From NCBI GenBank assembly GCA_964352905.1, contig CAYGTS010000002.1, forward strand, positions 1 through 56,525: a DNA stretch of 56,525 nucleotides, written 5' to 3'. A program made the translations under genes and the position numbers. Below the pieces are notes generated by a model. That model did not search any database, was not told the DNA's origin, and saw nothing but the letters and a program-made list of their open reading frames with translations. Each line of letters starts with the position of its first letter. Positions within the stretch are counted from its first letter, which is position 1. Of this stretch, positions 45,484-47,555 are shown piece by piece. This DNA comes from an uncultured Legionellales bacterium (GTDB lineage: Bacteria; Pseudomonadota; Gammaproteobacteria; JAHCLG01).

Positions 45484-46262
45484 CAGCCATTACTATCTAG
45501 GTCAATGCCTTTTAAAATATCATCATCGCTTCCAGCAGTACTTGTATTCTCATTGGCATGGTTCGCAGCAGTTGTATGATCATTTTGTGCAATTTGTTGT
45601 TGGCGTTTTTGAATATAAGCATTACGGAAAAACACATACTGATCGAGGGCGGCAGTATCAGCCACACCTTCTACGCTTAACAGTGACGCACGATAATTCA
45701 CGGCAGCTAGACTCAATAAGCCCCAACGCCATTGCCAATCAATATGCGGGAATATGGTAAATGCATAGTAATCTATAAAGATGCTAGGTGCATCACGCAC
45801 GGTGGTTGATCCAATAAAAGGTAATACTAAATAAGTTGATTTCTTCCAACCCCAACGTGCCAAGGTTAAACCAAAATCTTCTTTATGATGAGGTAAACCT
45901 ATTTGTGTGGCCACATCAAAAATACCACCAATACCAACAAACGAGTTAAAAGCAAAGCGCCAGGCATCAGAGGTGGCTTGCAATAATTTAAGCTGTAGTA
46001 CATCATTGGCAATCGTTGGTAATTCATTTAAATTGCTAAAGACATTGGTCACGCCGCGGCAGATTTGCCAGGGGGTCACTTTTTTATACAATTCAGCAAC
46101 AGGTTTTAGAAAGACTTGATCAACATCATGATTAAACAGGAATGCTTCACGATTAAAACGTTCAAAAGGATCATTAGGATCAACTTTAGTTGCATGAGTG
46201 GTAGCACAGCCGCTAAGTAGTAGCACGCTTAACAGAAGATTTTGGAAAATTTTTTTAATCAT
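45483..46262 (-). CDS. mlaA: lipid-asymmetry lipoprotein MlaA/VacJ
   Basis: Lipobox LLSGC and DPFERFNREAFLFN motif. Confidence 0.88.
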   Translation of the reverse strand: MIKKIFQNLLLSVLLLSGCATTHATKVDPNDPFERFNREAFLFNHDVDQVFLKPVAELYKKVTPWQICRGVTNVFSNLNELPTIANDVLQLKLLQATSDAWRFAFNSFVGIGGIFDVATQIGLPHHKEDFGLTLARWGWKKSTYLVLPFIGSTTVRDAPSIFIDYYAFTIFPHIDWQWRWGLLSLAAVNYRASLLSVEGVADTAALDQYVFFRNAYIQKRQQQIAQNDHTTAANHANENTSTAGSDDDILKGIDLDSNG

Positions 46263-46264
46263 AC

Positions 46265-46317
46265 TGCCTCAAATGTGATCGCTCTTGAGTGATTCAAGGT
46301 CACATGGGGAATTACTG
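46265..46317. repeat. solo family-2 Y-arm (53 bp)
   Basis: TGCCTCAAATGTGATCGCTCTTGAGTGATTCAAGGTCACATGGGGAATTACTG aligns with the Y-arm of 34507..34678. The other half is absent. Confidence 0.7.
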
Positions 46318-47555
46318 TCATCATCCAGGCTTAAGCAAACCAAACCATCTGCTAGCTTGGGTTCAAACCAAGTGGATTTAGGAGGCATTATATTGCCTTT
46401 ATCAGCAATTGTCATTAAATCATCGATGCGTGTTGGGTATAAACTAATTGCTAATGCGGCTTCACCGGCATCCACCGCTTTAGTCATGTTTGCAATACTA
46501 TTTAGGCCACCGATAAAATTAACACGCTGATCTTTGCGTGAATCCTGAATGCCAAGCAGATCATTAAACAGGTATTTTTCAACTAAGCTAACATCGAGGT
46601 TGGCAATCATATTACCAGCTTGGTAACAGTTTGGCTTAAATCTTAATGAATACCAGCAGCTTGCAAGATAAAGCCCAATTTCACCGGCTTGCTGAGGATA
46701 CACAGGATCCGCACATTCTTTTAGATCGCCACATTGCTGCAATTTGGCAAGAAACTGCTCAGAGTTTAAGTCGTATAAATCAGAAACGATACGATTGTAA
46801 CTTAAGATGCGCAGTTGACTCGCTGGAAATAACACACTTAAAAAATAATGATGCGGCGCATGGTGTTGTTTCATCGTTTTATCACGCTTTGCCGCAACAA
46901 TACTGGCGGCAGCGCTGCGGTGATGACCATCAGCAATGTATAATGTATCCAGCTGGTTATAAAGTTGATTGAGTTGTTTAATACTATCGAGATCATTAAT
47001 ACACCAGAACTCATGTTGAACTTGATTTTCATCCGTGACATTCACGAGCGGTTTTTGTTGTGATAATTTCGCGATTAAGGTATTAATTTCAGTATTATCG
47101 CGATGTGCTAATAAGACCGGTGATGTTTGCGCATTAATTGAAGATAAATGTTTAACGCGATCTTCTTCTTTATCATGGCGAGTTAATTCATGTTTACGCA
47201 CTTGATTTTTGTTATAGGCTTCAACTGAAACCGCAGCAATCAACCCAGTTTGTTGGTGATCGTGTGTGCCCAGGCGATATAAATAGAAACAAGGCTCAGG
47301 ATCTTGTTGCAAAATACCATCGCTCAACAGTTTGCGGTAATTTTCCATGCCTTTAGCATAAACTTGCGCATCGTATTGATCGACTTCTAGGGGTAAATCA
47401 ATTTCAGGTTTTGAAATATGCAAAAAACTTAATGGTGCATTATGCGCAAGTTCATAGGCTTGCGCACGGCTTACCACATCGTAAGGTGGTGCAAGCAAGT
47501 CTTGCGCATACTTTGGTTGTGGGCGAATTGCGGAAAAAGGATTAATGAGACTCAT
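46269..47555 (-). CDS. DUF1015 family protein with an element-derived C-terminal tail
   Basis: MSLINPFSAIRP N-terminus (ATG at 47555), ADGHHR motif and PKSTWFEPK near the C-terminus. The last ~15 codons and the stop lie in a family-2 arm. Confidence 0.8.
   Translation of the reverse strand: MSLINPFSAIRPQPKYAQDLLAPPYDVVSRAQAYELAHNAPLSFLHISKPEIDLPLEVDQYDAQVYAKGMENYRKLLSDGILQQDPEPCFYLYRLGTHDHQQTGLIAAVSVEAYNKNQVRKHELTRHDKEEDRVKHLSSINAQTSPVLLAHRDNTEINTLIAKLSQQKPLVNVTDENQVQHEFWCINDLDSIKQLNQLYNQLDTLYIADGHHRSAAASIVAAKRDKTMKQHHAPHHYFLSVLFPASQLRILSYNRIVSDLYDLNSEQFLAKLQQCGDLKECADPVYPQQAGEIGLYLASCWYSLRFKPNCYQAGNMIANLDVSLVEKYLFNDLLGIQDSRKDQRVNFIGGLNSIANMTKAVDAGEAALAISLYPTRIDDLMTIADKGNIMPPKSTWFEPKLADGLVCLSLDDDSNSPCDLESLKSDHI

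Follow-up and report, generated by a model that had tools for sequence, protein, structure and literature searches.

A one-armed family-2 MITE remnant at the DUF1015-mlaA junction of a Legionellales bacterium

The two co-directional genes DUF1015 and mlaA are joined, in the window (the whole 56,525-nucleotide stretch of DNA analysed here), by a solo arm of a family-2 element. The arm supplies the last residues and the stop codon of DUF1015, and places a GAGG motif directly in front of mlaA. This junction is quite probably an old truncated family-2 arm, left behind passively when a MITE inserted and then decayed, and not a selected domestication. The features concerned are as follows, all on the minus strand.

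46265..46317, minus: solo family-2 left arm, model positions 1-53 (profile match and 81% complementarity over 53 nt)
46317-46307, minus: arm tip CAGTAATTCCC, 11/11 intact
46274-46265, minus: conserved box ATTTGAGGCA of the arm, 10/10 intact
46269..47564, minus: DUF1015 (PF06245) ORF, Pfam E=2e-97; likely start ATG 47555, 428 aa
46271-46269, minus: DUF1015 stop TGA inside the ATTTGAGGCA box, in frame with the mlaA ATG, 6 nt between
46267..46270, minus: GAGG, a Shine-Dalgarno-like 4-mer, doubtful at this spacing (4-nt spacer CAGT before the mlaA ATG)
45483..46262, minus: mlaA lipoprotein gene (PF04333), Pfam E=7.5e-67, 225 bits
45016..45483, minus: SpoU-family (TrmL-like) methylase gene, third in the conserved DUF1015-mlaA-trmL block
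46318..46326, minus: putative left target-duplication copy GGATGATGA, 9 nt before the tip, inside the DUF1015 coding sequence; 9-bp duplications occur at other copies
46256..46264, minus: putative right target-duplication copy GTATGATTA, 9 nt after model position 53, containing the mlaA ATG; 7/9 against the left copy
46252..46264, minus: stretch after the arm, of uncertain origin, either weakly homologous to model positions 54-68, mainly through TTAAAAA (2-nt gap, posterior probability 0.4-0.6), or native; alternatively a target duplication

The solo arm and the tail of DUF1015

A family-2 profile was built from 51 full copies and searched with nhmmer over the whole 2.54-Mb genome. The arm scored 29.2 bits (E=9.6e-7), the posterior probability being high at model positions 1-53 and low at 54-68. 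Over positions 1-53 its identity to the best full copy is 85%; that is, the arm is about 15% diverged. With window positions 5400-5452 it shows 81% complementarity over 53 nt (match I18). The terminal tip agrees with CAGYRATTCCC at 11/11 positions and the left-arm box at 10/10, which makes the arm a family-2 member by sequence. The preliminary description had placed an arm between the two genes, and what lies there is a true member of the repeat family. It had also stated that the other half of the element is missing, in agreement with the search of 46100-46262 with all nhmmer filters off, which gave no right-arm match. A degenerate right arm hidden in the signal-peptide region of mlaA had been suspected by eye, and was rejected by nhmmer --max. 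Only one of the two terminal inverted repeats is thus present, and the junction copy is a truncated remnant, an incomplete element.

The Pfam match of DUF1015 reaches 326 bits against a gathering cut-off of 25.8 and covers residues 7-326. The ORF ends ...LSLDDDSNSPCDLESLKSDHI*. On the minus strand the junction reads ...CTG GAT GAT GA|C AGT AAT TCC CCA TGT GAC CTT GAA TCA CTC AAG AGC GAT CAC ATT TGA GGC A|GT ATG ATT AAA, with the arm between the bars. The DUF1015 frame enters the arm for 46 nt, so that the arm is the source of its final 15 codons (SNSPCDLESLKSDHI) and of its stop, as had been proposed. As a result, the protein ends 17 residues past the family-canonical ...L-x-L-D end. In 113 of the 119 homologues the end lies 6-8 residues after the WFxPKLxxG motif, compared with 24 residues here, and this tail is the longest among the 120 proteins (119 homologues and this one). 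All 13 genomic homologues align only to query residues 407-417. The AlphaFold2 model of DUF1015 has a mean pLDDT of 92.7 overall, and the last two 10-residue blocks have values of 54 and 45. Judged from these alignments, the tail is lineage-specific, and we infer it to be a tolerated, disordered appendage.

The RNA of the arm shows no special structure: the MFE of -14.9 kcal/mol (z=0.28) is no better than that of shuffled sequences. A search for known RNA families gave only a chance snoRNA match (E=0.17), far under the gathering score. Counts of promoters and terminators in or near the arm were not above those of shuffles. One promoter-like site (11/12) is located at 46415-46387.

Initiation of mlaA

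The ATG at 46262-46260 is the only possible start of mlaA. It is secure: the frame is closed by a TGA 6 nt upstream, and the lipobox LLSGC occupies the position conserved in the relatives. The signal peptide is MIKKIFQNLLLSVLLLSG|C, with the lipobox L-S-G-C at residues 16-19, and the distance from this Cys to the DPFE/DPYE motif (C+12) is identical in the relatives. For annotation, the last 15 residues of DUF1015 should be regarded as repeat-derived and not as a family feature; the start of mlaA can be kept.

The motifs AGGA, GGAG and GAGG peak genome-wide, showing that canonical Shine-Dalgarno sequences are in use. When gene starts were taken from our own ORF calls, not from curated annotation, GAGG at a spacer of 4 nt was found for 8 of 1985 genes, against 26-40 genes at each of the spacers 5-9. 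Among 670 clean ATG starts, also from these calls, the corresponding numbers were one and 10-19, with a background of 0.55. The GAGG-ATG spacer of mlaA is thus outside the range used by this genome (5-10 nt) and occurs at about background frequency. With the canonical anti-Shine-Dalgarno sequence (the assembly lacks the genome's own 16S 3' end), the GAGG forms a 4-bp core whose neighbours mismatch (U before, C after). The arm had been described as the source of the mlaA Shine-Dalgarno sequence. The origin of the motif in the box and its position 4 nt before the only possible start are borne out, but the background frequency of this spacer speaks against the proposed function. A spacer of 4 nt may be compatible with some Shine-Dalgarno activity, and the GAGG seems to be at best a weak helper of initiation. 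Since it offers only a 4-bp core at an unused spacer, initiation of mlaA probably results mainly from termination-reinitiation coupling to DUF1015, together with the A/U-rich start region. Dependence of mlaA on the DUF1015 stop 6 nt upstream, through such presumed coupling, is more plausible than dependence on the GAGG.

Origin of the junction

Family-2 is a non-coding foldback MITE of about 172 nt with imperfect terminal inverted repeats of about 55-68 nt and 9-bp target duplications. It thus has the general features of MITEs, namely high copy number, small size, no coding capacity, terminal inverted repeats and target duplications. The genome contains 55 full copies of 172-175 nt, besides many mini and solo derivatives; the median identity of the copies is 98%, and 114 of 400 contig ends fall in the family-2 tip. 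Perfect 9-bp target duplications are seen at four full copies and at a 48-nt mini-element. Solo left arms number at least 10, with breakpoints at model positions 32-76, and solo arms or deletions just past the box are frequent at places without a start codon nearby. In this genome, decay of the element commonly yields solo arms and arms with internal deletions.

Donation of stop codons by the element is equally routine here, since 32 long ORFs terminate inside family-2 copies. Nine of the 32 do so via the SNS... frame as in DUF1015, and one ORF (C59:14537-14857) terminates SNSRHDVELLKNDQI* at the same box TGA. Because each of the three frames meets a stop codon in the tip, insertions at gene 3' ends are tolerated, their trace being a short protein tail. 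Between co-directional genes, 29 of 52 full copies are found, several of them in gaps of less than 30 nt. Counter-selection of full elements inside operons, considered as the cause of the half deletion, is therefore unsupported.

In the most probable course of events, the element would have inserted at the 3' end of DUF1015, at the mlaA start or directly beside it, and then would have lost its centre and right arm. The 53-nt stretch would be what is left, an old, truncated left arm. We infer that the configuration is an ordinary MITE remnant at a site tolerating insertions. The arm is a common insertion by-product in this genome, and nothing shows that it was retained for usefulness. It illustrates clearly how MITEs, where abundant, remodel the ends of genes, here in a host-associated Legionellales-like genome.

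The preliminary description had suggested selective retention of the useful half. According to this explanation, selection kept the left arm for its TGA-plus-GAGG box, which provides DUF1015 with a stop next to mlaA and mlaA with a ribosome-binding site, and the hairpin-forming half was purged. This is unlikely. All positions of the box are intact (10/10), against a divergence of about 15% in the rest of the arm, but at this divergence a 10-nt box stays intact by chance about 17% of the time (P ~0.17), which is not significant. Among 11 genes starting within 25 nt of a family-2 copy (<=25 nt), only mlaA has a credible start with a left-arm GAGG spaced like a Shine-Dalgarno sequence. The arm would moreover add a Shine-Dalgarno-like motif, if the ancestral junction considered below is right, since the native upstream sequence (GCTTAAGCCTGG) has none. 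These points are countered by the background-level spacer (1/670 clean starts), by the commonness of solo arms (n>=10) and of donated stops (32 ORFs), and by the persistence of full copies in tight co-directional junctions; the suggestion of retention was accordingly not upheld. It is similarly improbable that the insertion split an overlapping DUF1015-stop/mlaA-start, and that a later deletion just past the TGA-GAGG box was fixed for rebuilding compact stop-start coupling. If true, the box would be a portable "stop plus ribosome-tether" cassette, a mobile-element fragment exapted into operon architecture. Selection of the remnant to restore translational coupling would make a small, neat case of exaptation, of which the present evidence falls short.

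The flanks GGATGATGA and GTATGATTA are identical at 7/9 positions at the end of the confident homology. With the offset fixed, 0.23% of random genome sites show such a match; the figure rises to 7.4% if the offset may take any of 30 values. At another solo arm (C47:8473-8524) the duplication is perfect (9/9), with an offset of 50. This 7/9 match means that DUF1015 and mlaA perhaps overlapped before the insertion. It suggests an ancestral junction ...CTG GAT GAT TAA / ATG ATT AAA, in which the DUF1015 end (...LSLDD*) would have overlapped the mlaA start by 8 nt. The reconstructed empty site would be ...CTGGATGATTAAAAAAATT, where DUF1015 ends LSLDD*, overlapping ATGATTAAA, and the target duplication would have copied the mlaA ATG. 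In two relatives the DUF1015-mlaA spacers are 49 and 92 nt with no overlap, which lends no support to an overlapping ancestor.

Alternatively, the arm might reach model position 68, so that the mlaA sequence ATG ATT AAA AAA derives from the element's ...GGTCACATTAAAAA and the MlaA n-region is partly MITE-encoded. The nhmmer alignment does continue to 46252 (model positions 54-68), where TTAAAAA agrees with the model. However, the posterior probability of this part is only 0.4-0.6, and the match is a low-complexity A/T one with a 2-nt gap. Conversion of CAC to ATG requires three substitutions. Furthermore, the 9 nt at 46256-46264 agree with the upstream flank at 7/9 positions, as a target duplication, and the MlaA N-termini of the relatives are equally short and basic without the element. 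Such an origin of the n-region is thus improbable. If the mlaA start is not element-derived, the sequence expected at the empty site is ATGATTAAAAAA.

Two genomes of the same family have the DUF1015-mlaA-trmL synteny. Their junction sequences are unrelated to the present one and lack the element, and their DUF1015 proteins end LTLDNS* and LSLDS*. Element-less relatives sharing this junction sequence, which would have spoken against a contribution of the arm, were thus not seen in these two genomes; because they are only 53-54% identical at the protein level, the junction comparison is a weak test. These two were the only same-family genomes found in the genome search. No related loci were found among genome contigs, and a search of 5.8 billion proteins gave no match of more than 54% identity. 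Metagenome and genome contigs were also scanned for exact patterns, namely the element box and anchors from the DUF1015 3' end and the mlaA 5' end, with no match.

The genome-wide profile E-value over 53 nt including tip and box effectively refutes a native junction that merely resembles the repeat by chance, even though the native DUF1015 3' end of the nearest relative, G001 (GATAATTCCTGA), has TAATTCC in common with the element tip. Also against a chance resemblance, no family-2 signal was detected at the junctions of 13 homologous loci.

Comparison with known repeats and coupled junctions

The foldback MITE QMITE2 of Coxiella burnetii measures 150-190 bp, has direct repeats of 7-11 nt and occurs in small as well as full-size forms (Wachter et al. 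2018, PMC5896051). It is found mostly at ORF 3' ends and in intergenic regions, and an overlap of 1-10 bp with the 3' end of a gene is seen for several copies (PMC5896051). In strain Dugway, an in-frame insertion gave EnhC a 33-residue C-terminal extension with a stop just downstream (PMC5896051). QMITE2 has a GTAG REP which is the target of IS1111, and its small versions are without TIRs and DRs (PMC5896051). Family-2 is similar to QMITE2 in size, direct repeats and siting at 3' ends; this is a likeness of architecture and behaviour, with QMITE2 taken from its published description only. The hosts are of related lineages, a same-family relative of the present genome being labelled "Legionellales bacterium". 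The copy described here differs in being a one-armed remnant whose box adjoins a downstream start, a case not described for QMITE2 in PMC5896051.

In Streptococcus pneumoniae, BOX elements overlap the extreme 3' end of 36 genes and encode the stop (Croucher et al. 2011, PMC3049150). BOX-derived ORF extensions are transcribed, and BOX-derived ORFs are without good Shine-Dalgarno sequences (PMC3049150). The family-2 arm is like BOX in that a repeat at a gene 3' end encodes the stop codon. BOX is, however, an unrelated modular repeat (boxA/B/C) of a Gram-positive host and lacks comparable target duplications.

The Correia elements of Neisseria and the Rickettsia palindromic elements are short inverted-repeat elements inserting at gene boundaries or in frame. 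They change the C-termini, promoters, RNA processing or transcription termination of their neighbours. They differ from family-2 in sequence, size and target site; the Correia elements have a TA target duplication.

Translationally coupled stop-start junctions are known in operons, for example the trpE-trpD-type overlaps and close stop/start pairs. The DUF1015-mlaA junction is unlike these in that its stop comes from a mobile-element remnant and its coupling is a presumed one. It is like them in that the stop lies 6 nt before the next start within a conserved co-directional block, in which the start of the trmL-like gene overlaps the mlaA stop by 1 nt.

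The DUF1015-mlaA junction and the tail of DUF1015

A solo left arm of family-2, a non-coding foldback MITE of this genome, lies at 46265-46317 on the minus strand between two co-directional genes. The positions and sequence statements of the preliminary description were all correct. The junction on the minus strand is as follows, with slashes at the limits of the arm:

...TTA AGC CTG GAT GAT GA/C AGT AAT TCC CCA TGT GAC CTT GAA TCA CTC AAG AGC GAT CAC ATT TGA GGC A/GT ATG ATT AAA AAA ATT...

Features of the DUF1015-mlaA junction
46269-47564, minus strand: DUF1015 ORF, 431 codons (PF06245, E=2e-97)
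46271-46269, minus strand: TGA stop of DUF1015
46270-46267, minus strand: GAGG, with a 4-nt spacer (CAGT) to the mlaA ATG
46262-46260, minus strand: mlaA ATG, in the same frame as the DUF1015 stop, 6 nt apart
45483-46262, minus strand: MlaA lipoprotein ORF, next after DUF1015 (PF04333, E=7.5e-67)
After mlaA, minus strand: SpoU/TrmL-type methylase ORF, its start overlapping the mlaA stop by 1 nt

The order DUF1015-mlaA-trmL(SpoU) (window 45016-47564, minus strand) is kept in both same-family genomes (loci L002 and L003); 11 Gammaproteobacteria that are more distant did not show it within 1.5 kb of DUF1015.

Of 119 proteins in the set of the 120 best homologues, 113 have their C-terminus 6-8 residues past the invariant WFxPKLxxG motif, typically in ...LVSHVLD. 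This DUF1015 protein ends 24 residues past the motif, which is the longest in the 120-homologue set. The C-termini of the two same-family relatives are ...CLTLDNS and ...CLSLDS, and all of the 13 genomic homologues are alignable only to query residues 407-417. These end positions place the canonical end of this DUF1015 at ...CLSLD. The arm encodes SNSPCDLESLKSDHI and the stop, and the tail is element-derived and lineage-specific. The proposal that the arm supplies the tail and stop of DUF1015 is supported. The AlphaFold2 model of DUF1015 had a pLDDT of 92.7 and a pTM of 0.89 overall, with the pLDDT falling to 54 and 45 over the two final 10-residue blocks. This would fit a floppy appendage.

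Family-2 copies and the stops they donate

The full family-2 element is 172-175 nt long and consists of a left arm of ~68 nt, an A/T-rich centre and a right arm of ~56 nt that repeats the left arm imperfectly in inverted orientation. Perfect 9-bp direct repeats flank four full window copies and a 48-nt mini-copy at 54651 (AACTTGGCT, CATAACAAG, CTTGATCAT, ACCAAATAT and ATAAGATGA). At window 7237-7597, a family-1 element is nested in a family-2 copy, whose halves lie at 7520-7597 and 7237-7347 with the 9-bp duplication CTTGATCAT intact.

The 2.54-Mb, 200-contig assembly holds 55 full copies, together with many mini copies that have internal deletions but keep both tips. In addition, 114 of the 400 contig ends break off in a family-2 tip, in the last 50-53 nt of the element (e.g. 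C7, C17, C41, C44 and C57). This means that the true copy number is higher than counted, and that the assembly is broken up mainly by this MITE; the termini common to contig ends could also belong to an unassembled parent IS. No family-2 copy was found by blastn in 20 related genomes, and an exact-pattern scan of metagenome contigs found no copy of the element box, the conserved 10-nt left-arm motif.

The arm at the junction pairs with 5400-5452 in a repeat search (81% over 53 nt). A family profile based on 51 full copies matches 46317-46252 with 29.2 bits (E=9.6e-7, whole-genome scope). The mlaA 5' region gave no right-arm signal by nhmmer with all filters off, so this copy is truly one-armed. 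The best full copy is 85% identical to the arm against a family median of 98%, which places the arm among the oldest family-2 copies. Its RNA fold is not unusual (z=0.28), and the RNA has no Rfam match.

Among our own ORF calls of at least 100 aa, 32 in the whole genome terminate within a family-2 copy. All three frames meet a stop in the tip: Q-stop from CAG TAA, QRFPP-stop (also QQFPV-stop) from CAG CGA TTC CCG CCG TAA, and SNSRRDVE-stop in the +1 frame. With these stops, an insertion into the 3' end of a gene would be tolerable. The SNS frame, as in DUF1015, is used by nine ORFs; the one at C59:14537-14857, also ending in a solo arm, reads on to the same box TGA and ends in SNSRHDVELLKNDQI. 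A stop donated by a family-2 copy is routine in this genome, and the DUF1015-mlaA arm is an ordinary and well-resolved instance of a phenomenon already known. The same gene-end behaviour has been published for QMITE2 of Coxiella, which overlaps several gene 3' ends and makes EnhC of strain Dugway 33 residues longer (PMC5896051), and for the BOX repeats of pneumococcus, from which 36 genes take their stop codon (PMC3049150).

The mlaA start

The ATG at 46262 is the sole possible mlaA start, because there is an in-frame TGA 6 nt before it and the use of the next in-frame start, the GTG of codon 13, would abolish the signal peptide. This start is supported by the lipobox of MlaA (MIKKIFQNLLLSVLLLSG followed by C) and by the position of the Cys 12 residues before the DPFE motif, identical in both relatives.

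Among 1985 ORF starts, GAGG precedes 26, 33, 40, 40 and 26 genes at spacers 5-9, and 8 at spacer 4. A cleaner set, of 670 ATG starts without an alternative start nearby, gave counts of 10, 16, 12, 19 and 14 for spacers 5-9 and of 1 for spacer 4 (background 0.55). GGAG, AGGA and AAGG show the same drop-off below 5-6 nt. The 4-nt spacing is wrong for this organism, and the GAGG core is just 4 bp. The 16S rRNA 3' end (GTCGTAACAAGGTA... or GATCACCTCCTTA), which would hold the organism's own anti-Shine-Dalgarno, was not found in the assembly; apparently the rRNA operon was either not assembled or withheld. The arm had been credited with the mlaA Shine-Dalgarno; its GAGG does adjoin the start, but an effective Shine-Dalgarno is unlikely at a spacer close to background, and GAGG is at best a weak one. 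Translational coupling in operons is well established. Termination-reinitiation coupling to DUF1015 would be a more likely route than GAGG, because the stop lies 6 nt before the ATG and the start region (AUGAUUAAAAAAAUUUUCC) is A/U-rich.

A promoter-like ATGACA-17-TATAAT (11/12) at window 46387-46415 (minus strand), within the DUF1015 3' end and ~125 nt ahead of the mlaA ATG, might serve mlaA-trmL as an internal promoter. Counts of promoter-like sites in this region are no higher than in shuffles.

Origin of the half element

The 9-mer GGATGATGA, which precedes the terminal 11-nt tip, agrees at 7 of 9 positions with GTATGATTA, the 9-mer directly following model position 53 of the family-2 profile. 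Such a match occurs at random genome sites with a chance of 0.23% at a fixed offset and 7.4% over any of 30 offsets. Should the two 9-mers represent the target duplication, the joined flanks would read ...CTG GAT GAT TAA, overlapped over 8 nt by ATG ATT AAA. The ancestral DUF1015 would have ended in ...LSLDD, a family-normal length, with mlaA coupled to it by the overlap, and the mlaA ATG would have been duplicated along with the target site. This reconstruction is suggestive only, and two observations speak against it: the two relatives have DUF1015-mlaA spacers, of 49 and 92 nt, in place of an overlap, and the same bases can be read instead as weak homology to model positions 54-68, where the posterior probability is only 0.4-0.6, compared with high values at positions 1-53. 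At C47:8473-8524 (plus strand), a solo left arm of ~50 nt ends just past the ATTTGAGG box and is flanked by a perfect 9-bp direct repeat, CAGATCTTG, at offset 50. A half-element here sits within an unbroken pair of target duplications; the DUF1015-mlaA arm has the same geometry (7/9).

Selective retention of the useful half, as had been suggested, is unsupported. At least ten other true solo left arms have breakpoints at model positions 32-76. In a mini subfamily of ~80 nt (C12:31034-31085, C8:29011-29089 and C132:5595-5673), left-arm positions 1-52 are fused to right-arm ~148-175, joined exactly after ...ATTTGAGGC. This means that the stretch just past the box is a recurrent deletion point, whatever the neighbour gene, and suggests that deletion or recombination recurs at a point between the left and right boxes. 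An intact 10-nt box at ~15% divergence has a chance of ~17%. Full copies lie between closely spaced co-directional genes in 29 of 52 cases, several with gaps below 30 nt, so purging of the hairpin is not obviously forced. For 11 genes, a family-2 copy lies no more than 25 nt from the start; of these, only mlaA has a left-arm GAGG near its start, a sample of one.

No relatives closer than the two same-family genomes (54% protein identity) were found in the genome, metagenome or protein collections searched. Their junctions hold no element-like sequence and do not share that of the arm, a weak test at 54% protein identity. The adaptive reading of the arm is not supported. Another solo left arm, at C31:14663-14706 (model positions 1-44), directly abuts a tRNA-Arg(CCG) gene at 14708-14784, at a distance of 1 nt.
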